DNA of 64,000 bases, taken from Candidatus Eiseniibacteriota bacterium (lineage in GTDB: Bacteria > Eisenbacteria > RBG-16-71-46). The notes under the pieces are model-generated. The model did not search any database and had not been told where the DNA came from. It saw only the letters and a list, made by a program, of their open reading frames with translations. The stretch is from contig OY970342.1 of assembly GCA_963717505.1 (NCBI GenBank), positions 2,496,001 to 2,560,000 of the forward strand, read 5' to 3'. A program made the position numbers and the translations under genes. Positions 1-22,962 of this stretch are shown here, in pieces. Within the stretch, counting starts at the first letter, position 1; each line of letters starts with the position of its first letter.

Positions 1-965
1 CCGGAGATCGCCGGGAACTTCCACTCGCGGATCTGCGACAACGCACACTGTGCGAGCCGCGAGGAGCCGACTGTGTTCTCGACGATGGTCGCTTCGGTTA
101 CGGCACCCGACGCGGACACGGTCAGTGCCACGACCAGCTTGCCTTTGAGCCCGGGGTCGCGCTTGAGCTCGTTGCCGTAGCAATACTGGATGCCGGCCGC
201 GTACCTCTGGATGATCGCCAGCAGCGACGCATTGCTCCGGTAGACTCCGGGCAGCGCGCCGGTGCCGCCACCGGTGCCACCCTCGGTGCCCGAGCCGCCC
301 TCGACACCGCCGCCGCCGGTTCCTCCCAACTCGCCGATCGAGATCCGCGACCCGGCGACCGTCGAGCCACCGAGGTCGACCAGCGCGCCGGTGCCGGCGA
401 CGTCCGTGGCGACCGCGCCGACTTCGGCGCCGGAACGTCCGGAACGCACGCCGCGCGAGCGGCGGCGTCCGGCCGGCGCCTGGGTCGCGGCCGTGGGCGA
501 CGAAGACGCCAGTGACGACGACAGGTTCTTGAGGCTCCGGTCGAGCGCCTCGGTCGATTTCTCGAGGCGTGTGGCGACCTCCTTCGTGGCGCGCGAGCGT
601 CCGACCTGGCCGGCATTGGGCGCCAGCGGCTTCGCCGGCTCGACTCTCCGAGCGCGCGGCGGTGGCGGCGCGGGCTTCGGCGTCTCGACCTGGGCAGGTG
701 CCTCCGGCGCGGAGGACTGCTCGATCGTCGCCTGCGCCGCAGGTCCGGGAGCGGCCGCCTTGGGCTTCTCGAGGATCAGGCGCGCGATGCGCGGTGGCAA
801 TTGTTCGACGGTCAGCACCGCCTGCGGGCGCGCCGGCCACAGAAAGACCGCGAGCAGGAACCCGAGTCCGATCGCCGACGAGACGATCAGACAGCGGTGG
901 AACAACGGGTCGTTGGGGCCGAACGGGGCCCGGCGGTACGCCTGTGCGGAGGCGATGACAGCCAT
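1..965 (-). CDS. TonB-like energy transducer with AgmX/PglI-type C-terminal domain (GltG-like), 3' end runs off the window
   Basis: Not in the ORF track; translated by hand from ATG 965 (RBS AGGAG): MAVIASAQ..., one TM helix (CLIVSSAIGLGFLLAVFLW), Pro/Ala-rich then Gly-rich linker, then RSNASLLAIIQRYAAGIQYCYGNELKRDPGLKGKLVVALTV...QCALSQIREWKFP, with the Cys pair typical of AgmX/PglI TonB_C-like domains. Confidence 0.8.
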   Translation of the reverse strand, partial: MAVIASAQAYRRAPFGPNDPLFHRCLIVSSAIGLGFLLAVFLWPARPQAVLTVEQLPPRIARLILEKPKAAAPGPAAQATIEQSSAPEAPAQVETPKPAPPPPRARRVEPAKPLAPNAGQVGRSRATKEVATRLEKSTEALDRSLKNLSSSLASSSPTAATQAPAGRRRSRGVRSGRSGAEVGAVATDVAGTGALVDLGGSTVAGSRISIGELGGTGGGGVEGGSGTEGGTGGGTGALPGVYRSNASLLAIIQRYAAGIQYCYGNELKRDPGLKGKLVVALTVSASGAVTEATIVENTVGSSRLAQCALSQIREWKFPAIS

Positions 966-974
966 GGTCGTCTC

Positions 975-1469
975 CTAGGTGTGCTTGATCACGGCGAGCG
1001 CGATGTCTTCGAATCCACTCTGCCCAAGCGTGTACATGACGCGCTGCAACACACGGAATTCGATGTCGCGATCGCCCTGGATGGTCACGGTGCGAGCCTG
1101 CGCCTCGGAGTCACCCTGGTGATGGGCAATATCGTCGAGTTGTTGCCACATGGCGTCGAGTCGGTCCGCCATGGGCTCGATCAACATGCCGTCGCTGCTC
1201 CCGACTTCGCTCACGCTGGCCACGCGCTCGCCGCCGACCAGGATGTCGTCGTCGTCGATCGCGACGACCAGCGACGACACCATGGCGTTTTCCGCAGTCG
1301 ACGCCGGCAGCTCGAGTCCCGGCGGAGGCACGGAGACCTCGCCGCCGGCCACGAACGCCTTGAGCACGAACAGCAAGAGCGTGGTCAGGATGTCCATCAT
1401 CGAAGTCATGCGCAGGCCGCCGGGGGCCGAACTTGGGTTTCGCCACTTTCTCTTGCGTTGCCGCCTCAC
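975..1469 (-). CDS. ExbD/TolR family protein (AglS-like)
   Basis: TM motif LRMTSMMDILTTLLLFVL with the conserved Asp; periplasmic IQGDRDIEFRVLQRVMYT; adjacent to an ExbB and a second ExbD. Confidence 0.9.
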   Translation of the reverse strand: MRRQRKRKWRNPSSAPGGLRMTSMMDILTTLLLFVLKAFVAGGEVSVPPPGLELPASTAENAMVSSLVVAIDDDDILVGGERVASVSEVGSSDGMLIEPMADRLDAMWQQLDDIAHHQGDSEAQARTVTIQGDRDIEFRVLQRVMYTLGQSGFEDIALAVIKHT

Positions 1470-1933
1470 GATGCCTCCTCGCCCTGAAGTCCTGCCTGGG
1501 ACAGGCCCGCCGCGCGCGCCAGGTCCATCACGGCGATGATGACTTCGTACCGGGTAGTTTCCTCGGCAACGATCTTCACGTCACGAACGTCCGGATGAGC
1601 GGCTACGAATGCATCGAGCGCCGCGCCAAGCTGGTTCCAGGCCGCGACTCCTGCCGGGCCGTCGCTGCCTCGGGGAATCACCTGGGCGGGCGCTCCGGTC
1701 GCTTGCACGACATAGGCCGCTTCGGTGATGCGCACCGTGACCACCACCGGTTCCTCGTTCGAGGTCGCCGCCGCATCGCCCGGCAGTCTCATGTCGATGA
1801 CCCGGATCTCCATGAACACCGCCGAGAGCAGCAGCATGGGGATCAGCACGATGAACAGGTTCATGAGCGGCAACAACTCGAGGTCCTCAGTGACCTTCTG
1901 CCGCCACGCTCGCTTTCTGCCGAACACCTTCAT
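1466..1933 (-). CDS. ExbD/TolR family protein (AglQ/V-like, Asn at the Asp position)
   Basis: Probable start MKVFGRK at 1933; DLELLPLMNLFIVLIPMLL TM; TRYEVIIAVMDLAR C-terminal motif; 4-bp overlap with the next gene. Confidence 0.88.
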   Translation of the reverse strand: MKVFGRKRAWRQKVTEDLELLPLMNLFIVLIPMLLLSAVFMEIRVIDMRLPGDAAATSNEEPVVVTVRITEAAYVVQATGAPAQVIPRGSDGPAGVAAWNQLGAALDAFVAAHPDVRDVKIVAEETTRYEVIIAVMDLARAAGLSQAGLQGEEAS

Positions 1934-1937
1934 GGAA

Positions 1938-2636
1938 CTAGCGGCTCCCCTGGACGACGCGACCTTGGCCTCCCGACATCGGCACGACCTGCGCCGCGCC
2001 GCGCGCAACCGCCGACATCGCGATCGCACGACTCAGCCGGATGCTCATGTCGTCCACCTGGTCGGCGATGCCCTCGACCATCGAAGACAGCCAGCCGTGG
2101 AGCAGCAGCGTCGGCACTGCGACCAGAAGTCCGAAGGCCGTGGTGTTGAGTGCTTGCGAGATGCCGACCGCCAGGAACGCCGAGCGCTGCGCCGGATCGG
2201 CGGCGCTCACCGACGAAAACGCGATCATGAGCCCGAAGATCGTCCCGAGCAGACCGAGCAGCGTGGCGACATTGGCCAGCATGTTGAGATGGGCGAGACG
2301 CTTGGACAGCGGCGGCAGCACCAGGGTGGCAGCATCGTCGGCTGCGGACTGGAGACGCGCCTCGTCGCCGGGGCCGGCCATCAGGATCGCCTGCGCGACC
2401 CGAGCGACCGGCGTCTTGGACAAGAGGCTCAGGTTCCGGGCTCCCGCCAGGTCGCCTCGCCCCACGGCGGACACCAGGTCGTCGGTCAACTTCCTGCTGT
2501 TCACCGCGCCCGCCCCGAGGATCACGATCGTCCGTTCAGCGACGATCGCGATGATGGCGACCCCTGCGGCCAGGATGAGGTGCATGAACTCGCCACCTTC
2601 CTTGTAGAAGGAGGCGACGGAAGAGAAGTCGATCAT
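1938..2636 (-). CDS. MotA/TolQ/ExbB proton channel protein (AglR-like)
   Basis: Start MIDFSS at 2636; ANVATLLGLLGTIFGLMIAF and GISQALNTTAFGLLVAVP are MotA/ExbB signatures. Confidence 0.93.
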   Translation of the reverse strand: MIDFSSVASFYKEGGEFMHLILAAGVAIIAIVAERTIVILGAGAVNSRKLTDDLVSAVGRGDLAGARNLSLLSKTPVARVAQAILMAGPGDEARLQSAADDAATLVLPPLSKRLAHLNMLANVATLLGLLGTIFGLMIAFSSVSAADPAQRSAFLAVGISQALNTTAFGLLVAVPTLLLHGWLSSMVEGIADQVDDMSIRLSRAIAMSAVARGAAQVVPMSGGQGRVVQGSR

Positions 2637-2932
2637 GGTTGAATCTCCTTTTGTTCTCCCACGGGCCCGGCAAGCACGGTGCTCCAAACCGGGAGCGCCG
2701 TGGCCTGGCCGAGCTCGAGGCTCGTCCTGAGGTAGCGTCGATGATGGAAATCCATGAAACGCCGCTGATCGCGGGTGGTGATGAACAACACCTGGGGCAC
2801 CGGAATCTCGCCTTCGATGTACACGTCCTCGAGACGCCGGGGTGCTCCGCTCTTCGTCTCTGCGCTCGAAACACCCGCGAGACACAAGGTCAGCAGGCCG
2901 GCGAGCGCGCCGGCAAGAATCGATCGGTTCAC
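2633..2932 (-). CDS. Small secreted protein, GltF/CglF-like
   Basis: Signal peptide; LEDVYIEGEIPVPQVLFI resembles the GltF-type 'I.GE...P...I' motif; position between the TPR gene and MotA matches glt-core synteny. Confidence 0.6.
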   Translation of the reverse strand: MNRSILAGALAGLLTLCLAGVSSAETKSGAPRRLEDVYIEGEIPVPQVLFITTRDQRRFMDFHHRRYLRTSLELGQATALPVWSTVLAGPVGEQKEIQP

Positions 2933-3867
2933 TTTTCCTCCCGCTTGCCGGCCAGGTCCTTGGCACTGCCGCTCATCACGCCCGCGATTCCGTCGGGGTC
3001 ATCGTGCGAGCGCTCCCAGTAACGCGCGAACCAGCGCGTCGCGGCCTCGTCGTCGAGCATGTAGAACTTTTCCAGGATCGCGAGGTTGTAGTAGGGACCG
3101 GGGAGTGTCGGCTCGAGGTCGATTGCCTTGAGGAATGCGCGCCGCGCCGATTCCGGGTCGCCGGCCCGCAGCCGGGTGATGCCGAAGTTGTTCTGGTTGG
3201 CGGCACTCTTCGAGTCCTCGGCGACGACGCGAGCCGCGAGCTCGCCGGCGCCATCCGGCTGATCGCCGCGCAGCGTCAGGTAGACGTACGCCGGGCCGCC
3301 CTCGCGCGGATCGGGGCGGGTCATCTCGGTCAGCACCTGCTGGGCCAGGTCGTGGCGGTCGAGCGCGTCATAGTGGAGCGCGAGTCCCGCCAGCAGCGCC
3401 TGCGGCACGCCGTTGGGGAAGGCCTTCGGTCGCTGGCGCGCGGCCTCGAGCATCTGGATCGCCTCCTGGTGGCGACGGGTCTCGAAGTAGAGGCGCGACA
3501 GGAGTGACAGAGCCGGCGCGTAGTTCGGGTCACGCGCCAGCGACGCCTTGAGCTCGACTTCGGCGCGCGCGGTCGAATCGGCGCCGGCGTAGAGCTGGGC
3601 GATCCGGAACGGCCAGTACGGCTCACCGGGCGCCAGGGCCGACTGCGTGCGCGCCTCGGACACCTCGCGATCGAGGGTCGATCCTTCGACCTTGGGCAGA
3701 GCCGCCGAGGGTCGCGAGGTCAGCGGCTGCCAGCCGAAGACCTTGAGTCCGCAACCGGCGAGCGCCGGCGCCAACGCCAGGAGCGCGACCAGGGCAGCCC
3801 ACGAACCCTGCGCCGCCCGTACCGGCGTGGTGCGCTGCGAGGGCGCGGCGAGTCGGTTCGAGGTCAT
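2929..3867 (-). CDS. TPR lipoprotein (GltE/AglT-like)
   Basis: Start MTSNRL at 3867; lipobox LAGC; TPR motifs (ANQNNFGI, ARRAFLKAIDLEP, PYYNLAIL). Confidence 0.8.
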   Translation of the reverse strand: MTSNRLAAPSQRTTPVRAAQGSWAALVALLALAPALAGCGLKVFGWQPLTSRPSAALPKVEGSTLDREVSEARTQSALAPGEPYWPFRIAQLYAGADSTARAEVELKASLARDPNYAPALSLLSRLYFETRRHQEAIQMLEAARQRPKAFPNGVPQALLAGLALHYDALDRHDLAQQVLTEMTRPDPREGGPAYVYLTLRGDQPDGAGELAARVVAEDSKSAANQNNFGITRLRAGDPESARRAFLKAIDLEPTLPGPYYNLAILEKFYMLDDEAATRWFARYWERSHDDPDGIAGVMSGSAKDLAGKREEK

Positions 3868-6800
3868 TTCGGGCTCCGTTGACGTTCGGCCGGCGTGGCG
3901 GCGGCGAGCGGGTGCTCCGCCTCCGGCATGTAGAAGAAGCGACGGGCCAGTCGCTGCCAGAGGGATTCGCGCGCTTTGGCGACCCATTCGCTGGCGGCCG
4001 TCTCGTCGCGCTGTGCGCGCAGCAGGTCCGTCCATACCTGCTCGCCGCGGGCGTGGAATGCGTCGGCCTGGCCGAGCAGCACGTCCTCGTAAGCGATCAG
4101 GTCATCCCCGGTTAGATCGGCAGGACGCTCGCTCTTCTCCAGCGCCTCGCCGAAACCGATCAGCGCTTCGCCAATGCGAAATGCCGAGGCTTGCGCCCAT
4201 TTCGCAACACCGACCTCGGCGCTGCGTCCGTAGGCGGCGATCAGGCTGTCCAGCAACCGCTGGCGGACCGTGATCGACTTGTCGAGCGGCTGGGTCAGAC
4301 GCGCACCCACGTAGGCGCGGCGTGCCTCATCACCCTGGAGGAAGCGTACCTCGGCGATCAGGTCCTTCGACGCCAGGTCGGGTCGCAGGCCCGCGCGCCG
4401 GAGGTACTCGGCCAGGTGCGATGCCGGACGCGTGGTATCCGGGGCCGCGGGTTTCGTCTTAGCTTTCTTCTTCGCCGGCGGCGCCGGTTTCGGCAGCAGG
4501 CTCGAGATCGGCTTATCGGTTCCCAGTGCGGCCACCTCACGACGCGCAAGCTTCTCGTAGATCTCCATCGCCATCTCGACGTCTTCCGGGTGGAGCCGGA
4601 TGTAGGCGATCCGGGTCGCGTCCGCGCGCCCGGTCAGCCCGGCGGCCTCGAGCAAATCGGCTGACTTGAGCAGGGCTTCGCCGGCGCTCTCGTCGTCGGG
4701 GTGACTGGCGGCGAACGCAGCCCAGGCTTCGGCGGCCCGCTCGCGCTCGCCCGATTTCTCCCAGGCGTGTGCGATCTGGAGCCGCGCGTCACGGACGTAT
4801 TCGCTTCTCGGGAAGTCGCGGATCAGCTCCTCGAGCGCCTGGATGCCCGCGGCGCGCGATCCGGCGGCCAACCACGCCAGTCCGGCGCGATACTTGGCCA
4901 CGTGGGCGTGTTCGTAGTTCGGCCAGCGCACGGCGACCCGCTCGAACAGCGCCGCATGCTTCTCGTGTGCGGTCGAGTCCTTGGCGACGGCCGCGTCGGC
5001 GTGCCGGAAGTAGCAAACCGGAATCGCCGCAGACGCGTAACGCGCCAACGAGTCCACGCCAGCGCGTTGCGCGGTAGCCAGCGCGCGTTCATACGCCGCG
5101 CCGGCATCCTCGAAACGCTCGAGGCGAAAGAACGCGTCGGCGCGCAGCCGGGCCGCGATCGGCAGTCGCTTGTCGCTCGAGTCGCGGAGCGCCATTCGGC
5201 CGAAGTCCTCGGCCGCGCGCTCGAACCAGCCATGGGCGAAGGCGAGATTGCCCTGGCGCCAGCGGACGTCGGCCGCCTGCGCGTGCTCGGGGTAGCGCGC
5301 GAGCAACGCGTCGCCGGCCTCGAGCACCGCGCGCGCCAGCGAGTCGTTCCGGGTGGTGTCGCCCGTGGCGCGCGTTCGGCTGTACCAGGAATCGGTCACT
5401 GCCAGTCGCTGCCACAAGGCGAGTGCCACGATGCTGTCGACCCCCGAAGCCGCGGCCGCCTGGTAGTGGACCAGGGCTTCGGCGGGATCGCCCAGCTCGG
5501 CGGCGGCTTCGGCGGCGAACAGGCGCAGCGACGGAGCTTCGGCGTCGTCCGGCCATGCGCGCAGCACGTGCTCGTAGAGTCGACGCGATTCACGCCAGTC
5601 ACTTTCGACATCCTTCTCGCGCGCCAGGCGGTGATGATGCTTGGCGACCGCGAGCATCGAGGTGCGCGCGAACGTGGCGCCCGCAACGCGGACCGAGTCG
5701 GACGTCTGGGCCTCGTACCACTTGCCGCCGGGCGCGAAACCGGCCGCGTGCTCGAGCTGGGCGCGACGGGCGTCGTCCGGACGCTCCGCGCGCCGTTGGG
5801 TCTCGATCATGCGTTCGGCCGCGAGGAGTGCGCCCGGATCCAGCGGGTGGCGCTCGAGCACCAACTGGTCCACGGCCGCCGCCTCGGCGAACATGCTGTA
5901 GCGGCGGAAGTGCTGGCCGAGGGCCAGCAGCAGTCGCAGGTCGTAGGGCCGCCGGCCGACGCGATCGAAGTAGGCGGTGAAGGCTTCGGCGCCGCCGGCC
6001 CGCGACAGGGCGTGCATCAGGTAGGTCTCGGCCTCGTCTTCGACGTCGGCCTGGATCGCGGCGCGTCCGGCCGAGGCGTACAGGTCGAGCACGACGCGGA
6101 ACGCGTCCACGGCCTCGAGGAAGCGGTCTTCGTTGAAGTACGCCCAGCCCTGTTTGAAGCGCGCGATGGCGGTCAGACTCGTGTCCGGACCGGCGGCCGC
6201 GTGCTCGTAGAGATCGACGCAGGCCGAGAAGTGTTTCTCGGAGAATTCCAGGTCGCCCATGCGCAGCCACGACTCCTGAACGTAGGGGGATTCGGGGTGC
6301 GTGGTCACCAGTGTGCGGAACAGGGTCGCTGCTTCAGGGTCGGCGCCGTCGGCCAGGATCATGCCGGCGTTGAACAAGACGGCGTCGCGGCGTTCGAAGT
6401 CGGCGTCCTCAGCCAGGATTTTCCGATAGAGCGCGAGCGCCGGGTCGTAGGTCAGCACCGGCAGGGTCGAAGCCGCCTGACCTGCCTCCTGATCGCGCAG
6501 GTAGGCCTCCATCTGCTGGCGGAAGCGATGGCGGGCCGCGACCAGCAGCAGATCGGCGAGATGGAAGCGCATCTCACCGCGCGCGGGCGACGCCGGGTGG
6601 CGTTCCAGGAACGCAGTCATATGGGCGATCGACGCGCTACGCCAGGCTTCGGCGTGCGGATCGTCCAGGGTGTCGGCGGGAGCCGCGGCCGCGAGCGAAT
6701 CCGACGCCGACAGCCCCACGCTCTGCGCATACGATGAAGCGGCCAGACCGTAGTCGATGCCCTCGCGCTCGGCATCGAGGTCGGCGAGCGTGCGCTCGAT

Positions 6801-8594
6801 CGCGGCGCGTGCCACGCGCGCGCGCAGGGTCTGATGCCCGGCGCGCAGCGAGTCGACGGCGCGAGCCAGTCCCGCCGCCCGCGACTCGAGTGCGGCAAGC
6901 TCGGCGCTGGTGGCAAACGCCTTACGGCTCGAGTCCATGGCGGCAGCCAGCGACCGAGTCCAGATGCGCAGGGCGCGCGCTTCGGCATCGAGCGCCTGAG
7001 CCCGCCCGACCAGGTCGGGACGCCAGGATTCGGCGTACGAGCGGGCGATCAGTCCCGGCACCTCGGCCGCGATCCGTGCTGCGGTCTCGAGAATCAGCGT
7101 GGTCAGCAGGTCCTCCTGGCCGAGGAGGTCGCGCTCGGCGGGCAGGCCCGGAGGTGGCGGCGACCGACGCCCGACCCACGGCCCTTCGAGGTGGAAGTGG
7201 CGCATGGCATGCATCCACGTCAGACTCAGGCGTCCCGACTCGATGATCGCACGGGTGCGCGACAGCATCCGGCTCGTCGCCGTGTCGCGCACGGACTGGA
7301 GCAGCGAGTCCAGAATGTCGAGATGCCGGCGCAGCGAGTCGAGCAACGCCGCGTGCGCGTCCAGCTCCGCGGCTTCGCGTGCCGCGCGGTCGAGGCCGAC
7401 GGTCAGGTACCGGCGATGCGCCGCCAACCGCTGGCGCTCGCGCTCGGCATCGAGCTGGGTGCGCGCCAGGTGGTATTGGTGCTCGTCGAGCACCTGCGCC
7501 GAGGTCGCGACCGCGAGCCAATCGGACCGTGGCGGGGGCAGCACCGGCCACATGGGTGCCGGGGCGGGAGGTGCGATCTCGAACACCGGGGCCGGAAGCT
7601 CCGGCTCGCTCAGCAGGTCGGCGGTGGCCGACGCCATCAGTTCCGCGAGCTTGGCGGTCGCTTCGGCGTCGAGCACGATGCCTTCGGACAGGCCGGGATT
7701 CGTGGCCCACGAGGTCCACAGCGACTCGTAGTCCGCAGTGGCCACGAGTCCCTTCAACGTGTCCCGGTGCTGGACCCAGTCCGTGTCGATCTTCCGGTAG
7801 ACGTCGTACGCTTCGTTCCATCGACCGCGATCGAGCGCGCGCCCGGCCAGAGCGAGGTGCACCTCCCGACGCGACGCGTAGCCCGGATCCGCGACCAGCA
7901 GCGACTCGAGCACGGCCGCACCCTGGTCGATCAGGCCACGCTCCATGAGCGACACGCCGAGCATGTGGCGTGCGCGCGCGGCGTAGCGACTGCCGGCCGG
8001 CACCGACTCGAGTAGCGAGGAAGCGTCCGCGCCGCGCGCCAATGCCGCCGTGGCTCGCCGCATCGCCTCGGCGCCGGCGAGGTCGCGCCCGAGGCGGGTC
8101 TCCGGATCCGGCGCCGGCAGGTCCGACACCCAGGTCGAGTCGCCGGCGGCCGCCGCGGCCAGGTGCTCCTGATGCCGCAGCCAATCGGTGTAGCGACTGC
8201 GTGGGCTCCAGCGGGCAACGACGCGCGCGAGACCCAGGAAATGGTCGCGGCTCCCCAGCGCCAGGTAGGCGTGGCCCAGGAGGAACGCGGCGCGGTCGGC
8301 CTTGGGGAAGGCGGGCGTCGTGAAATCCAGCGGCTCGAGCTGCGCGATCACGCCGTGGTAGTTGCCGAGTCGCTGCTCCATGGCCGCACGCGCCAGTCTC
8401 AGCGCGCCGTCGTCGGGTGCCTCGGCGGACGGCGTGACTTGCGACGGCTGCAGCACACGCTCGCTGGTGTCCTGGGGAGTGGACGACGCCGCGGCCGCGC
8501 GCGGTATCCCCGCAACGGCTAAGCCGGCCGCCACCAGCATCGTGACGGCGAGGATCGGGGCCATGAGGCCCCGGTGGCGGAACGTTCGGCGCAC
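3864..8594 (-). CDS. Very large secreted TPR protein (GltD/AgmU-like C-terminal half)
   Basis: 1576-aa ORF with signal peptide, coiled-coil region and many TPRs; C-terminal LTQPLDKSI...ASAFRIGE...SERPADL...YEDVL...WVAKARESL motif typical of GltD-like proteins. Confidence 0.8.
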   Translation of the reverse strand: MRRTFRHRGLMAPILAVTMLVAAGLAVAGIPRAAAASSTPQDTSERVLQPSQVTPSAEAPDDGALRLARAAMEQRLGNYHGVIAQLEPLDFTTPAFPKADRAAFLLGHAYLALGSRDHFLGLARVVARWSPRSRYTDWLRHQEHLAAAAAGDSTWVSDLPAPDPETRLGRDLAGAEAMRRATAALARGADASSLLESVPAGSRYAARARHMLGVSLMERGLIDQGAAVLESLLVADPGYASRREVHLALAGRALDRGRWNEAYDVYRKIDTDWVQHRDTLKGLVATADYESLWTSWATNPGLSEGIVLDAEATAKLAELMASATADLLSEPELPAPVFEIAPPAPAPMWPVLPPPRSDWLAVATSAQVLDEHQYHLARTQLDAERERQRLAAHRRYLTVGLDRAAREAAELDAHAALLDSLRRHLDILDSLLQSVRDTATSRMLSRTRAIIESGRLSLTWMHAMRHFHLEGPWVGRRSPPPPGLPAERDLLGQEDLLTTLILETAARIAAEVPGLIARSYAESWRPDLVGRAQALDAEARALRIWTRSLAAAMDSSRKAFATSAELAALESRAAGLARAVDSLRAGHQTLRARVARAAIERTLADLDAEREGIDYGLAASSYAQSVGLSASDSLAAAAPADTLDDPHAEAWRSASIAHMTAFLERHPASPARGEMRFHLADLLLVAARHRFRQQMEAYLRDQEAGQAASTLPVLTYDPALALYRKILAEDADFERRDAVLFNAGMILADGADPEAATLFRTLVTTHPESPYVQESWLRMGDLEFSEKHFSACVDLYEHAAAGPDTSLTAIARFKQGWAYFNEDRFLEAVDAFRVVLDLYASAGRAAIQADVEDEAETYLMHALSRAGGAEAFTAYFDRVGRRPYDLRLLLALGQHFRRYSMFAEAAAVDQLVLERHPLDPGALLAAERMIETQRRAERPDDARRAQLEHAAGFAPGGKWYEAQTSDSVRVAGATFARTSMLAVAKHHHRLAREKDVESDWRESRRLYEHVLRAWPDDAEAPSLRLFAAEAAAELGDPAEALVHYQAAAASGVDSIVALALWQRLAVTDSWYSRTRATGDTTRNDSLARAVLEAGDALLARYPEHAQAADVRWRQGNLAFAHGWFERAAEDFGRMALRDSSDKRLPIAARLRADAFFRLERFEDAGAAYERALATAQRAGVDSLARYASAAIPVCYFRHADAAVAKDSTAHEKHAALFERVAVRWPNYEHAHVAKYRAGLAWLAAGSRAAGIQALEELIRDFPRSEYVRDARLQIAHAWEKSGERERAAEAWAAFAASHPDDESAGEALLKSADLLEAAGLTGRADATRIAYIRLHPEDVEMAMEIYEKLARREVAALGTDKPISSLLPKPAPPAKKKAKTKPAAPDTTRPASHLAEYLRRAGLRPDLASKDLIAEVRFLQGDEARRAYVGARLTQPLDKSITVRQRLLDSLIAAYGRSAEVGVAKWAQASAFRIGEALIGFGEALEKSERPADLTGDDLIAYEDVLLGQADAFHARGEQVWTDLLRAQRDETAASEWVAKARESLWQRLARRFFYMPEAEHPLAAATPAERQRSPK

Positions 8595-8604
8595 GCTTTC
8601 GCCG

Positions 8605-10136: not shown

Positions 10137-10146
10137 CGGATGGCTC

Positions 10147-11068
10147 CTAGAAGAGGAACGAGGTGCCGAGGGTGAACTCGATGTTGTTGTTGGTGCGGCG
10201 TGCGGCATCGGAGCCGAACTCGAAGACGTAGTCGCGGACTTCCCAGCGCATGGCGGTCTTCCTGGACAGGAACAATGCGGTGCCGGCGCCGAAGTTGAAG
10301 CTCGATTCGGTGTCGCCCTGCATGATCGAGGAGCCGACGCCGCCGACCAGGTAGGGGACCATCTGGCGTCCGGGCAGCACCTCGATGATCACGTCCAGGT
10401 GGTAGAACAGCATGTGGAAGTCCTCGGCCTCGAGCGACAGGCCGAACAGCGACTCGACGATCTCGGCCGGACGCTGGATGTGCGTCCACGCGCCGCCGGC
10501 TTCGACCTGGATCCGGTCGAACACGTAGTAGCCGAGCGCGTCCGCCGAGGACGAGCGAGTTCGACTTGCGGTCGAACGCGTAGGCGCCGCCGTAGCCGCT
10601 GAGGATGAACGTGCCGGTGCGCGAGTAGAGCCGGGGATTCGGCTGGAACTTGAGGTCCGACAGGTCGTCGAACTCCTCGCACAGCGACGCGTGGATCCAG
10701 CCGGTCTCGCTCTCGGAGATCTGGACGTTGTACCAGTCGTCGCTCTTCGCGAGCACCGGAAAGTCCGAGCCCTTCTTGAACACACCGACGATCGCGTAGG
10801 CGTCGCCGGGGCCGGCGCGCATCACGTTGCGCGCGGCCTCGTTCAGCCGGACCATGCGGCGTGACGTCATCCGCTCGTTCATGGTCGCGGCGATCGACGT
10901 CGATCCCACCCGGACGGTGTCCGTGGGCGAGGCGGAGTCGAGGCCGTTCGCGGCGACCGAATCGACCGGCGCCGGATCCTCCAACTGGGCGTACGCCATG
11001 CTCGGCGCGGCCAGGGCCGCAACGACGAGCCAGGCCCACGCGGCGCGTACCGAAATCGATCGCATCAT
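10147..11068 (-). CDS. SH3 domain + outer-membrane beta-barrel protein (frameshifted near 10545-10565)
   Basis: ORF 10133..11149 gives signal peptide and bacterial SH3 (NVMRAGPGDAY...WYNVQISESETGWI); ORF 10147..10785 continues with barrel strands (PYLVGGVG, FNFGAG, RWEVRDY) ending in TSFLF. Confidence 0.75.
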
Positions 11069-11081
11069 CGGGACGTCCCTT

Positions 11082-11762
11082 TCACCAGGACCCGCGGAGC
11101 CAGGCCAGCTCCAGACGGGCGTTCCATTCGCCAAACGATTCGCGTTCACGCACGACCGTGCCGCCGCTCTGGTGGGCGGTGTCGAGCGCGAACACGCGAT
11201 GGTCCACTTCCAAGCCCAGCGCCCACGCGGGGCCGATCGACCTGCGCACGGCGAGTCCGCCGCCGCCGATCCACTCGGTGACCGGATCGAACGCGACCTC
11301 GATCGGCGTTCCGCCCGCGTCGAGCGTCACGTGATCGGGGCTCCACCCCAGGTGAATCAGTCCGGTGCTGGCGATGGCGGCGACCTCGGTGCCCCACAGG
11401 GTGCCGAGTCGCGCACGCCCGACGACTTCGCCGGTGGTCGAGCGCACGGTCGGGGACGGAGCGCTGGCGCCCAGATCCTGCGTGGTCGCTCCACTCCACA
11501 GACGAAGTCCGGCCGACCAGCGCGCAGCACCCGCGAGCGCCTGAATGCCCCACGCGGCGCGGGGCTCCGCATTCCACTGGTAGTTCGAAAGCGAGGCGGC
11601 GGGCACCCACGTGCCGGCGAGTACCCCGACCGACAGCCAGCGTCCGCCCTGCGGCCCGGCGTCGGCGTCACACGCCGTCGCCGCGTGCAGCATCACCGCG
11701 GCCGCCAGTGCGGCGGCCGTGCTTGCCACGCGAGCCCGCGTCGCATCCCTGCGAGCGCCCAT
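11082..11762 (-). CDS. Putative outer-membrane beta-barrel protein
   Basis: Signal-like N-terminus, alternating amphipathic strands, C-terminal NARLELAW. Confidence 0.5.
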   Translation of the reverse strand: MGARRDATRARVASTAAALAAAVMLHAATACDADAGPQGGRWLSVGVLAGTWVPAASLSNYQWNAEPRAAWGIQALAGAARWSAGLRLWSGATTQDLGASAPSPTVRSTTGEVVGRARLGTLWGTEVAAIASTGLIHLGWSPDHVTLDAGGTPIEVAFDPVTEWIGGGGLAVRRSIGPAWALGLEVDHRVFALDTAHQSGGTVVRERESFGEWNARLELAWLRGSW

Positions 11763-11763
11763 G

Positions 11764-12405
11764 TCAGGGGCCCACACTCAATTCGAGCCCGACCGGCAGG
11801 ATCTCGTACTGGGCCGAGGGGAACGGCGTCACGATCAGCGAGTCCTGGCCGTTCTGCAGTTCGACCTCTTCGCCCGACCCGAGATAGCAGACGAGGAACA
11901 ATCCGGCTGGCGGCGCACCCGAGGTGTCCATCGGCGCCGATCCGGTGAACGCCAGATCGATGTGCTGGATCAGGTGGTCCCAGCCGGTGACCGCGCGGGT
12001 GGCGCGTCCGACCGAGACCGAGTTGGCCAGCAGGCTGTCGATGTTCGCGGCCATCAGCTCGCGCGGGGCATCGGGGTGCAAGGTCACCTGGGCGGGCGTG
12101 ATCGTGCTGCTCGCCCGCACCTCGGCGATCACGAATCCGGTGAGGATCGACCGATAGGTGATCGCGGCCCGCACGTTGATCGGCAGGCTGCCGCCGGCCG
12201 GCACGATCTGCCCGGGCGTCACGTTCGACGCCGCGAAGTCGAGACGCGTCCAACGGTCCTCGATCTCCGGCTCGTCGAACGCTTCGCACCCCGCGAGCAG
12301 AACGGCGGCGAGCACGACCGACACCCGGAGCGCCCCGCGCAGTCGAGGTCCGGGACGGCCGGCGCTCGCGCGCCGGCCCCCGTGACGGAGTGGAGTGTGC
12401 ATCAT
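11764..12405 (-). CDS. Hypothetical lipoprotein
   Basis: ATG overlaps the upstream TGA; lipobox VLLAGC; beta-rich mature region. Confidence 0.65.
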   Translation of the reverse strand: MMHTPLRHGGRRASAGRPGPRLRGALRVSVVLAAVLLAGCEAFDEPEIEDRWTRLDFAASNVTPGQIVPAGGSLPINVRAAITYRSILTGFVIAEVRASSTITPAQVTLHPDAPRELMAANIDSLLANSVSVGRATRAVTGWDHLIQHIDLAFTGSAPMDTSGAPPAGLFLVCYLGSGEEVELQNGQDSLIVTPFPSAQYEILPVGLELSVGP

Positions 12406-14053: not shown

Positions 14054-14084
14054 AGGATGCTCCTCTCGCGAGATGCCGCGACCC

Positions 14085-15227
14085 TCAGAACCGGAAACCG
14101 ATCCCGGTTTCGAGGATGTTCGCCGAGTAGTTGTTGCTGTTGAAGTAGCGCTCGTCGTTGAGCCACAGCGCTGAAGCGGCCGCAACGTCGGATGGTCGGC
14201 CGAGATGCCGTCGAGGTCGAGATTCAGAGCGACGCCGAACAGGTGCGACGACAGCGTCCGCCATGCGGTAGTCACCGGTCCGGTAGCCGTCGATGCCGTT
14301 CGCGTCGGTGTATTCGTCGCGGTAGAAGTCGGCCGCGCGTCTGCGTGTACCAGCGGTACTCGTAGCGCGCGAACACGCCGTGCGTGACGTACTGGCTGAG
14401 CTTGGTGCCGACCTCGTGCGAGTCGATGCCCCAGTCGTCGTTGTAGAGGCGGTAGTGGAGCTTCAGGCTCGAGCGGTTCGGCAGGTACTGGTTGAGCTTC
14501 GACGAACGCGTCGCGGCGCTGGCGCTGGTCCGGGTGGCGCTCCGGCACGTTGGTGCCGCCGGCGTAGACGTTGCGATACGGGTTGTGCTGCAGGCCGTCG
14601 ACCAGGTTGTACTCGACGCCGACGCGCATCATGGTGCGTCGGCGTCAGCACCTGGGTCGCGACCGCGTTCCAGTGGAGCGTGGTCTTGGTGTCCGCGTCG
14701 GTCTGGGTGTCGTCGTCGGCCAGCGGATCGATCGCGTCCCAGCCGTAGCTGGTGCCCACCGACAGGTTGAGCTGCGAGTCCATGAAGGTCGCGGTGTAAC
14801 GGGCGCCGAGCTGCTGGGCCAGGTAGTCGGTCTCGCTCGAGAAGTAGTAGTCGACCGACGCGTGGCCGCGGCTCAACTCGCCCTGCGAACTCGTTGCGGA
14901 TCTTGACGAAGTCCTGTAGGCGTTGCCCGAGATCGGGCGGCTCGCGGTGGTGATCGCGTCCACCGCCTCCGGGCTGCCGACCGGAGCGTCGATCGCGGGG
15001 ATCATCACGCGCTCGTTGTTCCAGTGGAAGTTGAGTCCGAGATCGCTGCGCAGCTTGAACGCGTAGTCGCCGAGGAACGATCGCACCGACACCTGGTCGG
15101 AGTCGGTGAACAGGCGCAGCATGGACCCCAGGTTCTGGTCCTCGAGCTCCATCATCGAGCCCGAGGCCGGAGCCGCGGCGGCGCAAAGTCCGAGTGCGAG
15201 CGCCACGATGCCGCACCTCAGTTGCAC
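14085..15227 (-). CDS. DUF3570 family outer-membrane beta-barrel (multiple frameshifts)
   Basis: GTG-CAA-CTG (MQL) start overlapping the DUF4266 stop; VDAITTAS, SSETDY, GLQHNPYR, PERHPD segments across frames; ends ETGIGFRF with C-terminal Phe. Confidence 0.8.
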
Positions 15228-15478
15228 GCGCAGCCCCCGCCGGCGCCGCCGTTGCCGCCGGTCGAGCCCTCGCGGGCCTCGAGCGACTTGGTGAGGCGCG
15301 CGTCCTTGCGGGCTTCTGCGTCGAACGACATGATGCGATCGGTCAGGCGTTCGCGCTGATAGGCGCTCACCGCCCCGCAACCGGTCACCAGGAAATGCAG
15401 GGCGACGATCAGGGCCAGCGCGAACAGGCGGAGCGCGAAGCCCGAAGCCGTGGTCGCCGCCGGGAACGTGCGTTTCAT
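15218..15478 (-). CDS. DUF4266 family lipoprotein
   Basis: Lipobox VTGC; VSAYQRERL...REGSTGGNGGAGGGCACN terminal signature. Confidence 0.88.
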   Translation of the reverse strand: MKRTFPAATTASGFALRLFALALIVALHFLVTGCGAVSAYQRERLTDRIMSFDAEARKDARLTKSLEAREGSTGGNGGAGGGCACN

Positions 15479-16038
15479 GGCGCGTCTCCTTCCGTGGCGC
15501 GCGTCGCCATCGGCGGACGCGCCAGCTCCTGTTTGGTCACCTGGCGCAGCGCGGCCAGCGACGCGGCGTCCGAGCCGGACGTGGCATGCACGACGTCGCC
15601 GCTGCGATCGAGGACGACGGTGTACGGAACGTGCTGCAGGTCGAGCGTGCGGGCCAGCCCGTCGGGCCCGTCGTGATAGACCGGGAGCGACAGGTGGTAG
15701 CGCCGCAGAAGCGCTTGACGTTGCGCGCGTCGTGGTCGATGGAGACCGCCAGCACGCGGCCGCCCTGCTTGGCGATCTCGGCATGGAGCGCGTCGAGCTC
15801 GGGCAGCTCGCGCCGGCAGGGCGCGCACCAGGTCGCCCAGAAGTTGATGACCACGACCTCGCCCTCGAGTGAGGCCATCGGCACGCGGGTGCCGTCGAGG
15901 GCTACGCAATTCGTGCCCGGCGAGCGCGGCGCGCGTCCGCGTCCTGGCCGGCGCCTGCGGCACCCGCAGCGTGCCGCCGCCACCAGCAGTGCGGCGAGTG
16001 CCGAGCAGCGCAGGGCTCATGGCTCGAATCCGGTTCAC
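15475..16038 (-). CDS. TlpA family thiol-disulfide reductase (frameshifted)
   Basis: VVVINFWATWCAPCRRELP, LAVSID, then VPYTVVLDRSG in another frame; GTG start with RBS GGAG. Confidence 0.85.
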   Translation of the reverse strand: MNRIRAMSPALLGTRRTAGGGGTLRVPQAPARTRTRAALAGHELRSPRRHPRADGLTRGRGRGHQLLGDLVRALPARAARARRAPCRDRQAGRPRAGGLHRPRRAQRQALLRRYHLSLPVYHDGPDGLARTLDLQHVPYTVVLDRSGDVVHATSGSDAASLAALRQVTKQELARPPMATRATEGDAP

Positions 16039-16049
16039 GCCCGACTCCT

Positions 16050-18055
16050 CTACTTGTACTGGGCGCCGAGCAGCACCCAGAGGTTGAAGTCGGCGCGTTC
16101 TCGCTCGGTCAGCGCGGGCGCCGTCGGATGCGAACCCATGCCGGCACGCGAGCCGAGGCCGAGGACGTAGTCGATCAGGCGCGACCGGCGCGGGAACGCC
16201 GGCGTCACTTCCTGGTTCTGCATGCTCATCGACTCGCCCGACAGGTTGATGTAGCCGCGCGGGAAGATGCGGTCCTCCATCGTCGTGTCCGGCACGGCGG
16301 TCAGGTCGAGGTTGCCCGCGGCCGCGGTCGTGTCGGTGCCCACGATGGTCGGCTGGTGACAGCTGACGCACTTGTTGGCCACGATCGGACCGATCGTCGA
16401 TTCGTAGTTGATGATCCTGCCAGCTGCGACGCGGGCAGGTTGAGGTCGTGCGCCGGGACCATCGCCGCCATCGGGTTCGGATTGGTCACCACCGGGCCGC
16501 CGGCCGCACGGTCCTCGTGACAGCCGACGCACTTGTCGAACTCCTCGCCGGGCGCACGAAGAGGTGGGTGCGCTTGACGACGAAGCCGCGGCTCAGGTTG
16601 TCGAGCGTGGCGAAGCTGATCGGCGTGTTGGCCGGCACCTTGATGCGGAACGAGCCGTCGGACTGGACCGGCGCGATGCCGATCAGCGCGCGCTTCTCGA
16701 ACTCGTTGGCCGAGAAGTCGTTCATCTCACCGGGCCTGGTCGGACGCGCGGCGATGACGGCGATGCTGTCGATCACGTCGATGCCTTCGATCGGACGCTC
16801 CTGCCCGTCGCTGGTGCCGCGGTTGAACACGTCCTGCGCCAGGAACACGCCGTAGGTCAGGCTCTGTGTTCAACGTCGAGGGAATGACCGGCGGCTTGGT
16901 CTGCGGCGCCAGCAGCTGCGCGTCGTACTCGTTGGCCGTCGGATCGTTGTAGAGGAAGGTCAGGTTGTCGAGCGTGAACGTCGCCGGGTCGCCCGCGCGC
17001 CGGCGCCGGTCTGGGTCAGCGTGAAGGTGTAGAGGCCGTAGTCGACATCGCCTTCGGTCGCCGCCGGCAGCGTGTACGACGCGACGAACTGGTTGCCGCC
17101 GATCGGGTGCGGATACTTGAACGCACCGTAGGGCCAGGGCTCGCCGTCGTTGTTGACCTGCGCGGTCACCACGTCCCAGTGCTGCGAGCTCGGGCCGTTG
17201 GCCGGGTCGGCCGGGCCTTCTTCGAGCTTGAGCACCGCGATCGGACCCGCGTCCTCCTCGATCATCGTCGACTCGATCGCGATCAGGCGGCCGTCGGGCG
17301 TCGGCGACGGCGTGGAAGAAGTTGCGGTCGTGCGGGCCGAACTCGTGGAACGTGCCCGAGCCGTCGGGGTTGGTGAAGAACAGCGGGAAGCGGTTCATCG
17401 TCCCGAAGTGCTCCCAGCGCGTGTAGACGATGCGGCCGTCGGGGAGCAGGGTCGGGTCGAAGTCGTCGCTCTGGTTGAAGCTGATGCGCTCGAGGTTGCC
17501 GCCGTCGGCGTCGCAGACGTAGCAGGTGCTCGGCGGGCGCGTGGTTGTACTCGTCCATCTCGTCGTCGCGCGAGCTGGTGAACATGATCCGGTCGTCCGG
17601 CAGGTAGAGCGGGTCGAAGTCGTGGCCGCCGCCGGTGGTGACCTGGCGCAGCCCGGTGCCGTCGGCGTTGATCTCGCAGATGTTCTTCCGGGAGCCCCGG
17701 ACGGGCGCATCGAGAACAGGATCTTCTTGCCGTCGAACGACACGCACGGGTCCGAGATGCTGGCGCCGGCGAAGTTGGTGATCGGCGTGACCACGCCGTC
17801 CGGCGAGATCGGCGAGAGCTTGTACAGGTTGCTCGGCGCCCAGGTGCGATTGAGCGTCTCCTCGGCGTCGGTCTTGACGAACACCAGCGCCTCGGTGGTC
17901 GGCTCGTCCTGGATCAGGTCGTCAGGCGCGCTGTCGCGACAGCCGGCAAAGCCGGTCGTCAGCAATCCGACGGCGGCCAACGCGGCGAGCATGGCCAGCG
18001 CGTGGAACGCGCGGAGTCGCCGCGAAGCGGGTGCGGTAGCAGGATGTCGGGTCAT
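16050..18055 (-). CDS. Hydrazine synthase alpha (HzsA)-like beta-propeller lipoprotein with two c-heme motifs (several frameshifts)
   Basis: Lipobox FAGC; DPCVSFDGKKILFSM, DFDPLYLPDDRIMFTSSR, DGRIVYTRWEH, FFTNPDGSG, APVQSDGSF..KVPANTPISF; CVGCH at 16517-16531 and CVSCH at 16356-16370. Confidence 0.8.
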
Positions 18056-18086
18056 GGCGTGCTGATGCCTCCGAGGGTGGTGCGGA

Positions 18087-18749
18087 TTACGGGGCGATCG
18101 TGCGGTAGAACGAAAGCCCGATCGTCTGCTGGAGGTATCGGATAAGCCACGATGCCCTCGCCGTTACTTTGCGAGCCGAACACCGTGGCATGGACGACCT
18201 CGGCGCGGAGCGCCAGGTCGTTTCGGATGAAGAACTCGAGTCCGCCGCCGGCCGTGAGTGCGTTCTTGGTCACCGGGTCGGCGTTCAACGCGAGCGGCCG
18301 GGGGAAACCATCATCATCCCGTAGCCGAGGCTGACGTACGGCTGAAAACGCCCTGGCAGCGGGTAGCGGACCAGCGCGCTCACCGAATGGAGCACCGCGT
18401 GCACCGACTGGCCCGGGTTGTGGCCGAGCGAGCCTTCGTAGCCGAGCCAGGAGTTTGGGTTGTACGCGAGCCGAAGGGTGAATAGCGCTTCGGAGCCGAG
18501 CGAGCCGTAGCCCGGCGTCAGCGAGAAGCGATGCAGATACGGCCGCGTTCCCGGCTCCAGCCGATACGGTTCCGTCGCGATATCGGGCACGAGAGCCTCG
18601 AGGCCGGCCCGAGTTCGCGCCACTTCCTTGACGGCGGTCTTCTCCTCCTCGGTCGCGTCGGCGTTCACGCCGCTCGAAGACGCCGCCAGCGACACGACCG
18701 CCCATGCGACCACCCGCCAGAGTGCGGAACGGCGCAGTTGGAGGTTCAT
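18087..18749 (-). CDS. Outer-membrane beta-barrel protein (frameshifted)
   Basis: Start MNLQLRR; signal peptide; strands LRLAYN, FQPYVSLGYG, GGGLEFFI, LALRAE, IGLSFY across frames. Confidence 0.65.
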
Positions 18750-19198
18750 GGCTCCACCCCCGCGAGGATCCAATCGAGGATGGCCTGGTAGCCGACGTCG
18801 GTGGTGTCCGCGAACGGCTTGGTCTGATGTGGTGTTCCGCCGGCGGCGAGCGCCAAAGGTTCGGTCAGGATCGGGCTCTGTTCCCGATCGGTCGCCAAGA
18901 CCTGAAGTGAGACCTGGTCGAAATCGAACTGCGGGTCCTTGTCTCCGACCGGCGACAGCTGCAGCGAGCCGCGGATGCCACCGCCGTGACAGTCGCCACC
19001 GGCATCGCAGCCATGGGCGGCCAGGATCGGCGCCACGTCCTGCTGGTATTGAGCAAAGCTCAACACCAGGCTGGTGCCGCCCCCGGGCGGCGCCGGCGGC
19101 GCCGTCGGTGAGCTGCAACCGTGCACGACGCCCGGCAGTGCGAGCAGCGTGACCGCGATCGATGCCATACGTCGCGGGGTCGGTTTCGTGTCCGCCAA
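18746..19198 (-). CDS. Small lipoprotein with atypical heme-binding motif CX5CH
   Basis: TTG 19198 behind RBS GAGAGGA; lipobox VHGC; DVAPILAAHGCDAGGDCHGGG, distal His (GTPH) and YQAILDWI, like planctomycete-type cytochrome c domains. Confidence 0.65.
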   Translation of the reverse strand: MADTKPTPRRMASIAVTLLALPGVVHGCSSPTAPPAPPGGGTSLVLSFAQYQQDVAPILAAHGCDAGGDCHGGGIRGSLQLSPVGDKDPQFDFDQVSLQVLATDREQSPILTEPLALAAGGTPHQTKPFADTTDVGYQAILDWILAGVEP

Positions 19199-19364
19199 TG
19201 CGTAGTCCTCTCCGAGCCGTGCGTCGTGCACGCGTCCCACGGTCAAATCGCGGTGCGGAAGCGATGCCCGGCTCGCATCTGCGAACCGGTTGCCGCCTAT
19301 CGCCTTGCGACTCCGTGGCGTCTCGTTCAGCGCTCCCCGTCGATGGGAAAGCGCCAGGGATCAC

Positions 19365-19379
19365 GCAAGCGCCGGGCCA
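19365..19379 (-). promoter_or_regulatory. Sigma-54 (-24/-12) promoter of the 19-kb operon
   Basis: Minus strand TGGCCCGGCGCTTGC (GG-N10-GC); upstream TGT-N11-ACA (about 19405-19421) and TCGC-N5-GCGA (about 19446-19458) as candidate enhancers. Confidence 0.6.
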
Positions 19380-19559
19380 CCGAACCGGTCACTCCACCAG
19401 CGAGTGTGCGCGAATGAAACAGTGGGGGAGAGGACGCAGCCCATTCGCAAAACGCGATGGCTGGGGCGTCGCGCGCAGCAGAAGCGGGCACGTCCCTCGC
19501 GGGCTCACGTCGCGAGGGGCCGGCGGAACGCAGGACTTTGGCGGCGGCGGTCGGAGGCG

Positions 19560-20649: not shown

Positions 20650-20982
20650 GTCCTGCGGGGCGACGCCCGACGCGTTCGTGCTCCATTCGCCTCGCGCGCG
20701 CCGGCTGGTTTCGATCGGCACGGAAACTGCCACGTCCACGCGACCCTTGACGTCGCCGGGGTCGTCGGCCGCTCAGGGATGAGGCGTCTTCCGGGCGCAC
20801 GTGCGCGTACAACGTGCCTTCGGAGCGGGGAACGCCTGTTGTCCGGCTCTCTCGCTTCGAGGGCTCGAAGCGTGCGGTCTGCCCCTTGGTCCATTGCCCT
20901 CCGCAATTCGTGGGGCTTCCGGATCCCTCGCTCGTCGTGTGCAAGTGCAACGACTTGCGGCCGTTTCATCTAGAAACCGCCG

Positions 20983-20997
20983 TGGCACGGAGCTTGC
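20983..20997 (+). promoter_or_regulatory. Sigma-54 promoter of the minor pilin operon
   Basis: Consensus TGGCACGGAGCTTGC about 45 bp before the ATG; inverted repeat GCAAGT-N6-ACTTGC at 20941-20958. Confidence 0.8.
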
Positions 20998-22961: not shown

Positions 22962-22962
22962 C

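Follow-up and report, generated by a model that had tools for sequence, protein, structure and literature searches.

The 64,000-nucleotide stretch of DNA analysed here (the window) belongs to the genome of a Candidatus Eiseniibacteriota bacterium (G000; assembly GCA_963717505.1, contig OY970342.1), which consists of a single contig of 4.16 Mb and is 86.7% complete, and corresponds to G000:C1:2496001-2560000. The genes in positions 1-19400 lie on the minus strand, according to composition and to frame analysis based on G+C content at third codon positions (GC3), and form a 19-gene cluster in which a set of outer-membrane, haem and thiol proteins precedes a motor of the Agl/Glt type. An initial annotation of this DNA had proposed a single operon joining these two gene sets, with 19 co-oriented genes in a given order, and both proposals are supported by our analysis. 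Because the copy in the window has frame breaks, gene models were taken from the clean orthologous cluster of a relative, G016, where the 19 genes are found on one strand with gaps of no more than 43 nucleotides and several 4-nucleotide stop/start overlaps. All 19 proteins of G016 were matched by tblastn on the minus strand of positions 1-19379, with their order kept and with identities of 42-80%.

Layout of the cluster and linkage of its two modules

Scans with Pfam and NCBIfam models identified HZS_alpha and PD40, thioredoxin/Redoxin, DUF4266, DUF3570, NHL and FlgD_ig, SH3 with an outer-membrane barrel, two TPR proteins, MotA_ExbB, two ExbD proteins and a TonB-like protein of the AgmX/PglI type. 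Nearly all the domains named in the initial annotation were thus recovered; the labels flavin, 'GltF-like' and 'PepSY-like', for which no support was obtained, are discussed below. The cluster can be divided in two modules. Module A (g01-g10) comprises four outer-membrane barrels, four lipoproteins (one of them a di-haem HzsA-like propeller and another with a CX5CH motif), the thiol pair TlpA/DUF4266 and an NHL propeller with a sorting domain. Module B (g11-g19) is of the Agl/Glt "core complex" type: its stator combines a MotA-type channel with two different ExbD subunits, just one of which retains the Asp that carries protons, and it also includes a membrane-anchored TonB-like arm of the AgmX/PglI type, two TPR scaffolds and three small exported proteins. 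The features, in window coordinates and with the evidence for each, are the following:

19365..19379 (-), candidate sigma-54-type promoter (-24 TGGC / -12 TTGC), TGGCCCGGCGCTTGC; by pattern and conservation
18746..19246 (-), g01, lipoprotein with a conserved C-X5-CH (candidate haem site); tblastn, 62.6% to G016
18052..18725 (-), g02, small outer-membrane beta-barrel; tblastn
16050..18055 (-), g03, di-haem HzsA-like beta-propeller lipoprotein, spread over at least four frames here; HZS_alpha and PD40
15475..16010 (-), g04, TlpA-like periplasmic thioredoxin (CxPC); AhpC-TSA/Redoxin/Thioredoxin
15218..15430 (-), g05, DUF4266 lipoprotein with a C-terminal CxC; PF14086, 50.8 bits
14085..15240 (-), g06, DUF3570-like outer-membrane protein without the flavinylation motif, frame-disrupted; PF12094
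12405..14080 (-), g07, NHL beta-propeller with a C-terminal sorting domain (type-IX-like), frame-disrupted; NHL and FlgD_ig
11764..12390 (-), g08, lipoprotein of no known family; tblastn
11082..11777 (-), g09, putative small outer-membrane barrel; tblastn
10147..11149 (-), g10, SH3 domain fused to an outer-membrane barrel (OMP_myx_plus-like); SH3_3/SH3_4
9507..10208 (-), g11, exported protein with which module B begins; accompanies that module in G026, G066 and G069
8605..9552 (-), g12, exported protein ('coiled-coil' in the initial annotation); tblastn, 55.9%
3864..8594 (-), g13, giant TPR protein of 1576 residues in the GltD position, single intact frame; TPR_6, YfiO
2929..3870 (-), g14, TPR lipoprotein in the GltE position; TPR families
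2633..2932 (-), g15, small exported protein with a short, strongly conserved core, IHIEGEIPVPQVLFITAR; tblastn, alignment of five orthologues
1938..2690 (-), g16, proton channel of the MotA/TolQ/ExbB family; PF01618, 79.6 bits
1466..1936 (-), g17, ExbD/TolR-family subunit (ExbD1) without the transmembrane Asp; PF02472, 58.9 bits
975..1469 (-), g18, ExbD/TolR-family subunit (ExbD2) with the transmembrane Asp; PF02472, 39.5 bits
1..965 (-), g19, membrane-anchored TonB-like protein with an AgmX/PglI C-terminal domain; NF033768

The linkage between the modules was evaluated across 206 genomes of the phylum, using a match to the cluster-type DUF3570 as marker of module A and NF033768 as marker of module B; the resulting tallies are descriptive, related genomes not being independent. 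Both markers were present in 60 genomes, only A in 5 (all of them 78-91% complete), only B in 14 and neither in 127. In the 33 genomes where both markers lie on one contig, the distance between them is invariably 12.6-15.7 kb; 31 of these genomes have the two markers on the same strand and 2 have them on opposite strands. By blastn, the whole cluster is colinear in 8 genera of this family and also in a genome of a neighbouring family (G020, unpublished, with no conclusion depending on it by itself), and the same 19-gene order was obtained by tblastn in families f4, f10 and f13. The modules are adjacent in two further genomes, G066 (family f8) and G069 (f9), arranged there as divergent operons, g01-g10 and g11-g19.

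A search of genome contigs with the g03 profile gave 125 relatives, of which 80 loci were kept. The locus crosses the boundary between modules, reaching g11 or beyond, in 56 of these, and 48 reach g13, always with order and strand kept; the remaining 24 end less than 5.8 kb after g03, before the boundary. Several of the g03 loci come from metagenome-assembled genomes labelled Krumholzibacteriota, Latescibacteria or Gemmatimonadota. Among five such genomes outside the 206, an AgmX-C domain was located 16-17 kb downstream of g03 in four, and no match to it was obtained in the fifth, whose assembly is fragmented. The claim that the two halves are linked in related genomes therefore holds, on the evidence of the phylum tally, the spacing, the colinearity and the g03 loci.

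Metagenome contigs were scanned with more distant g03 homologues, and 80 loci were kept, around 65 of them with no other cluster gene. In four loci, L131 (9920-21790), L147, L152 and L154, HzsA-like and g01-like proteins, an SH3-barrel, a barrel, TlpA, DUF4266 and a DUF3570 without the motif stand ahead of large TPR proteins matching the g13 profile; in L126 the order of module A is permuted, and its NHL protein weakly matches Por_Secre_tail. In the distant variant the HzsA-like protein has 1000 residues, and the DUF3570-like protein without SGAS is followed by a 205-residue protein, a 631-residue TPR protein and a giant TPR protein.

As to expression, the initial annotation had placed the operon behind a GG-N10-GC promoter, and the sigma-54-type site upstream of g01 fits this pattern. 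The loose pattern is common in the window (24 matches vs 11.5 expected), so that weight is carried by conservation and not by a single match: a TGG[CT]-N8-TGC site exists upstream of g01 in 8 of the 12 orthologous upstream regions examined, none having been found with the patterns used in G008, G040, G072 and G037. Modules A and B are inherited together and, judging from this conserved site, would be expressed from one putative sigma-54-type promoter in this family.

Two other regions of the window can be mentioned. A perfect sigma-54 -24/-12 consensus, TGGCACGGAGCTTGC (20983-20997, plus strand), heads a minor-pilin/PilY1 block divergent from the cluster, with GspH-like (20974-21510), N_methyl (21485-21865) and PilY1 (22876-25674) genes, and at 48541-53892 on the plus strand two neighbouring genes encode Ser/Thr protein kinases, both of which carry fused PD40 beta-propeller repeats.

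Properties of the encoded proteins and state of the window copy

Two proteins of module A are candidates to bind haem. The best solved relative of g03 is hydrazine synthase alpha (5C2V, E 1.4e-28), the alignment covering the propeller, the middle domain and both CxxCH motifs, which are invariant in 9 sequences. With NF052339, the equivalog model for hydrazine synthase alpha, g03 scores 95.5 bits vs a cut-off of 800, and Pfam and NCBIfam scans revealed no genes for the beta or gamma subunits among its neighbours in the cluster. Its profile matches 40,156 proteins at E values up to 0.001, and g03 therefore belongs to a large superfamily of unknown function. The C-X5-CH motif of g01 is present in 12 of 14 orthologues, the other two having C-X4-CH. 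No Pfam or NCBIfam model matched g01, and a profile comparison with the C-terminal (second) haem domain of g03 gave a weak match (E 0.012, probability 3.5%).

Regarding the barrels, the G016 orthologue of g02 has weak matches to OMP_b-brl (E 0.0014) and OmpA_membrane (E 0.019), with a TIGR04565 score of 21.5 bits for g02, and that of g10 matches OMP_b-brl and reaches 55.7 bits with TIGR04565, vs a cut-off of 60. The assignment of g09 as a putative barrel comes from its position and sequence character only. Neither g09 nor the lipoprotein g08, in which the G-C residues of the lipobox are invariant in 12 sequences, matched any Pfam or NCBIfam family.

The triad formed by g04, g05 and g06 is a paralogous copy of a TlpA-DUF4266-DUF3570-ApbE operon that is found elsewhere in relatives. 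The C-x-P-C motif of g04 is kept in 10/10 orthologue fragments and the orthologues of g05 end in GGCAC[KN]. PF12094 recognises g06 with 118 bits in G016 and with 42.5 and 16.4 bits in the window. However, the motif associated with flavinylation of these proteins, [S/T]GA[S/T], whose function we take as described in the part of the report by Meheust et al. (2021; PMC8238504) accessible to us, appears in 0 of 14 g06 orthologues, which have a 7-residue deletion exactly at the flavinylation site, whereas it is kept in both of the canonical DUF3570 paralogues located next to ApbE. No ApbE gene accompanies the DUF3570/DUF4266/thioredoxin-like trio in the cluster; the nearest one is around 12 kb away, at 31338-33767 of the window (minus strand), behind unrelated genes. 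The flavin component of the initial annotation is for these reasons unsupported, and we infer that the triad is a flavin-free offshoot of the ApbE-linked system, with a role in thiols or haem-protein maturation at the outer membrane being more likely than one in flavin-based electron transfer.

With respect to this family, some further observations were made. The ApbE domain at 31338-33767 forms the C-terminus of an 810-codon open frame in which no Pfam family matches the first ~490 residues, and G000 lacks a canonical DUF3570 that could be its substrate. Canonical TlpA-DUF3570-ApbE operons of relatives are located at L121 (G016:C21) and L122 (G013:C1), the former lying after genes for a histidine kinase and for a response regulator with a fused glycine-cleavage H-like domain. 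The additional DUF3570-like copies found in G072, G038 and G039 were discarded as unrelated paralogues accompanied by DUF4266 only.

The NHL propeller g07 is probably a cargo of a type-IX-like pathway. A hidden Markov model (HMM) built from its last 85 residues (an 83-residue domain) matches 196 open reading frames (ORFs) of the genome, and in 171 of these the match ends no more than 3 residues from the end of the ORF, which points to a type-IX-like secretome of very large size in this bacterium. Since g07 carries what is thus the general C-terminal sorting domain of the genome, it is probably surface-exposed. SprA is present in the genome (226 bits vs a cut-off of 200), PorV is below cut-off, and the Pfam models for type IX secretion tails gave weak results (CHU_C, E 0.023; Por_Secre_tail, 23.5 bits vs 27 in a distant homologue).

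In module B, the channel protein g16 ranks fifth, and lowest, among the MotA_ExbB matches of the genome and scores 58 bits vs a cut-off of 221 with the TolQ equivalog, while the TolR equivalog gives 22-32 bits in the cluster vs a cut-off of 127. The transmembrane Asp of g18 is kept in 11/11 relatives and in the window; in g17 that position is occupied by Asn in 10/10 relatives and the window (Ser in G026). The last ~14 codons of g19 fall just outside the start of the window. With NF033768 (cut-off 40), g19 reaches 73.9 bits for the piece in the window and 91.3 bits on the genome; TonB_C gives 25.4 bits, and the full-length GltG equivalog 53-58 bits vs a cut-off of 650. The GltJ equivalog gives 39-41 bits in the cluster, vs a cut-off of 450. 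The TonB-like g19 is a protein of the AgmX/PglI type and not an ordinary TonB. A separate TolQ-like gene (115.6 bits, genome position 3810752) is found beside a full-length TolB (318 bits, 3808368), and Pfam scans detected no TonB-dependent receptor or plug domain among the 19 proteins. The TPR and TonB-like proteins of the cluster do not, then, group with ordinary Tol-Pal or TonB uptake systems, the Tol-Pal locus being a separate one at 3.81 Mb.

The C-terminal part of the giant protein g13 is YbgF/BamD-like (TIGR02795, 102.5 bits) and no GltD model matched it in the Pfam and NCBIfam scans; g14 scores 21-26 bits with NF033758 (GltE), vs a cut-off of 225. Of the three small exported proteins, g11 has no Pfam match, a best E value of 1.5 in a PDB profile search and, as nearest clusters in the Atlas, hypothetical proteins of Eiseniibacteriota/Krumholzibacteriota, so the proposed PepSY-like identity has no family match behind it. 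The same applies to the 'GltF-like' label given to g15, for which no Pfam or NCBIfam family was found; in the sections of Luciano et al. (2011; PMC3169522) available to us, GltF is not part of the conserved core. No Pfam or NCBIfam family was matched by g12 either.

The frameshifts mentioned in the initial annotation are real features of the assembly. Indels of a length not multiple of three and private to one copy were counted for each gene against five orthologues: g03 has 7 in the window (0-2 in each orthologue), g06 has 8 (0 in each) and g07 has 8 (0-2 in each). These 23 single-base indels, in 4.75 kb of sequence, lie in the region 12400-18100 of the window and amount to 17 extra and 6 missing bases. 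The private indels of g04 (5) and g10 (2) are within the range of the orthologues, both genes being split over two frames in tblastn (for g10, with a frame change near 10538-10623), and those of g11-g14 are within the background of the other copies. The 5-kb bin at 14001-19000 has 17 frame runs, which is the 99th percentile of the genome (median 7). The assembly has frame errors in general, since SprA is also in pieces elsewhere in the genome, and the excess of insertions together with an intact codon periodicity favours a local assembly error; the restriction of the indel excess to module A leaves real decay open. Short low-depth contigs, mostly from relatives and a few identical, show the orthologue-like state at 16418/16423/16549, 14168/14183/14255, 13971/14006 and 15907, which neither proves nor excludes an assembly error. 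The 23 indels in g03, g06 and g07 may thus correspond to either decay or local assembly error.

Possible function of the cluster

The cluster is real and conserved, and its function can be proposed by analogy. The interpretation we favour, to which we would give slightly less than even chances, is that of a trans-envelope machine of the Glt/Nfs class with its own outer-membrane module, in which the motor would act on the barrels to handle a surface complex. Its basis is the analogy with the Glt outer-membrane platform that exposes CglB: in the portion of that preprint we could access (bioRxiv 10.1101/2020.07.22.216333), the small barrels GltA/B/H and the lipoprotein GltK of Myxococcus control the surface exposure of CglB, and the TonB-like proteins GltG/GltJ are proposed to pull on the Glt platform. 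Driven by the proton-motive force, the motor of module B would exert its effect on the module A barrels by way of the TonB-like arm of g19 and the TPR scaffolds. The haem lipoproteins and the sorted NHL propeller could in this way be controlled in their assembly, surface exposure or turnover, which would give an energised surface complex of redox-active or adhesive character. The initial annotation had already suggested that the motor pulls on the barrels to handle a redox-active surface complex, which stands as the leading reading though still as a conjecture. A more specific version seems doubtful to us, namely that a Glt-type motor is dedicated to extracytoplasmic redox chemistry and mechanically gates or assembles, at the outer membrane, a complex made of c-type haem lipoproteins and a thiol relay, with electron or thiol transfer at the surface being switched by the proton-motive force. 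If true, it would be the first such use of this motor and would provide a concrete cargo for the core complex of non-gliding bacteria.

Several points weigh against the idea of a motor acting on its own outer-membrane module. Contact between A and B is postulated by analogy with the Glt platform. The N-terminal extension of g10 is not conserved, and no TonB box is therefore evident in this protein. By position and TPR architecture, g13 and g14 are only candidate orthologues of GltD and GltE, the GltE score being far below cut-off. Judging from the 23 frame-breaking indels, the system may be inactive in this genome. Only g11 and g13-g19 are present in G026, with unrelated genes upstream, and all six genomes of its genus (g23) have marker B without A; since B is alone in G026 and, by marker, in 14 of the 206 genomes, B does not need A. 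The stator is not always encoded with the rest and would then have to be supplied from elsewhere, because the clusters of G009 (L017) and G014 (L026) lack motA/exbD/exbD, being otherwise complete, and that of G040 (L028/L029) lacks both exbD genes as well as TlpA/DUF4266. Module B is accordingly a self-standing unit, and A an accessory outer-membrane module that stays beside B where present.

The resemblance of module B to the Agl/Glt core, the probable surface exposure of g07 with its general sorting domain and the fact that the Glt platform exposes an adhesin, as stated in the accessible part of the preprint (bioRxiv 10.1101/2020.07.22.216333), could also correspond to a surface-motility or adhesion machine, with g07 as an adhesin moved or unmasked by a Glt-type motor like CglB and the haem and thiol proteins as accessory elements. 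We consider this unlikely, given that Luciano et al. (PMC3169522) argue, in the available sections, that gliding is not powered by the core complex on its own and that non-gliders have it as well, that Group A gliding genes were not identified and the GltG/GltJ equivalogs are far below their cut-offs of 450-650, and that two conserved haem proteins and the thiol pair would be left unexplained. In full-text searches no literature was found joining 'Eisenbacteria' with 'gliding', and 'Krumholzibacteri' with 'gliding' returned only unrelated work.

Energised uptake, in which the TonB-like arm would open the barrels and a metal or other substrate would be imported after reduction by the haem and thiol proteins, appears similarly improbable. 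In its favour are the TonB-like C-terminal domain, the ExbB/ExbD-family genes and the occasional link of DUF3570 clusters to iron transporters mentioned in the part of Meheust et al. (2021; PMC8238504) that we could access. However, no TonB-dependent receptor or plug is encoded among the 19 proteins, the barrels are of small size, the TonB-like protein belongs to the AgmX/PglI type and the cluster encodes no inner-membrane transporter.

The YbgF/CpoB-like TPR part of g13 (102.5 bits), the TolB-like propeller of g03 and the TolQ/TolR-like motor might alternatively point to envelope maintenance resembling that of Tol-Pal, a tethering or remodelling of the outer membrane with the module A proteins as clients or structural partners. 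There is little to recommend this view in a genome with a separate Tol-Pal locus, and the absence of the cluster, by both markers, from 127 of the 206 phylum genomes indicates that it is not a housekeeping system. That two independent systems merely lie side by side is very improbable, for although B occurs alone and the modules are separate transcription units in two families, their spacing is constant in 33/33 same-contig cases, adjacency survives rearrangement in G066 and G069, the five A-only genomes are 78-91% complete, the g10-g11 gap is 10 nucleotides in G016 and a similar association exists in distant metagenome contigs.

Comparison with known systems

Both the core complex and the DUF3570 system have been described before, in 2011 and 2021, respectively. 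We found no description of their union or of this cluster in the literature, where the supplements of Luciano 2011 and Meheust 2021 might list such neighbourhoods, and no mention of the cluster in the part we checked of the literature on Eisenbacteria, cytochromes and the outer membrane. The core complex has been known since 2011 and its function outside gliding myxobacteria is unexplained; here it is tied, in two uncultured phyla, to a defined outer-membrane and surface set, and hence to a candidate cargo and a testable function. In addition, the cluster contains a flavin-free version of the DUF3570/DUF4266/TlpA module that is linked to haem proteins, and a member of the HzsA-like superfamily is placed in a defined genetic context.

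Three of the systems available for comparison resemble module A. The ApbE/DUF3570/DUF4266/thioredoxin-like system, as presented in the accessible part of Meheust et al. (2021; PMC8238504), has the TlpA-like, DUF4266 (CxC) and DUF3570-family proteins in the same order, whereas the copy in the cluster is devoid of ApbE and of the motif and is set between haem proteins and a motor. Hydrazine synthase alpha (5C2V) and its non-anammox homologues, as far as the available part of their description goes (PMC12758564), share with g03 the beta-propeller, the HZS_alpha middle domain and two c-type haem sites; g03 differs in being below the equivalog cut-off, in lacking a beta-gamma partner gene and in being a lipoprotein. 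The JDVT-CTERM proteins encoded beside DUF4266/DUF3570/TlpA (Haft, 2023; bioRxiv 10.1101/2023.06.07.544157) likewise combine the triad with a protein bearing a sorting tail, but with another sorting signal and in Pseudomonadota, and no motor is described in the portion of that preprint accessible to us.

For module B, the closest parallels are the Agl/Glt systems. The machine of Myxococcus xanthus also couples a motor, a TonB-like arm and TPR scaffolds with several small OmpA-like barrels and with lipoproteins, the exposure of which at the surface could be under control. In the cluster, by contrast, the GltG, GltJ and GltE equivalogs are far below their cut-offs, and there is no CglB-like vWA adhesin, the candidate cargo being the haem lipoproteins and the sorted NHL propeller. 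The core complex of non-gliders consists of aglR, aglQ, aglS, gltD, gltE, gltG, gltC and one extra gene, according to the available sections of Luciano et al. (PMC3169522). Like it, the cluster holds in one operon a channel of the MotA/TolQ type, two ExbD/TolR proteins, a TonB-like protein of the AgmX/PglI type, a giant TPR protein and a TPR lipoprotein. It differs in that one ExbD is devoid of the Asp and no third TPR protein is encoded, in its occurrence in Eisenbacteria and in metagenome-assembled genomes labelled Krumholzibacteriota, and in the ten-gene outer-membrane haem and thiol module and the two exported proteins that precede the core.

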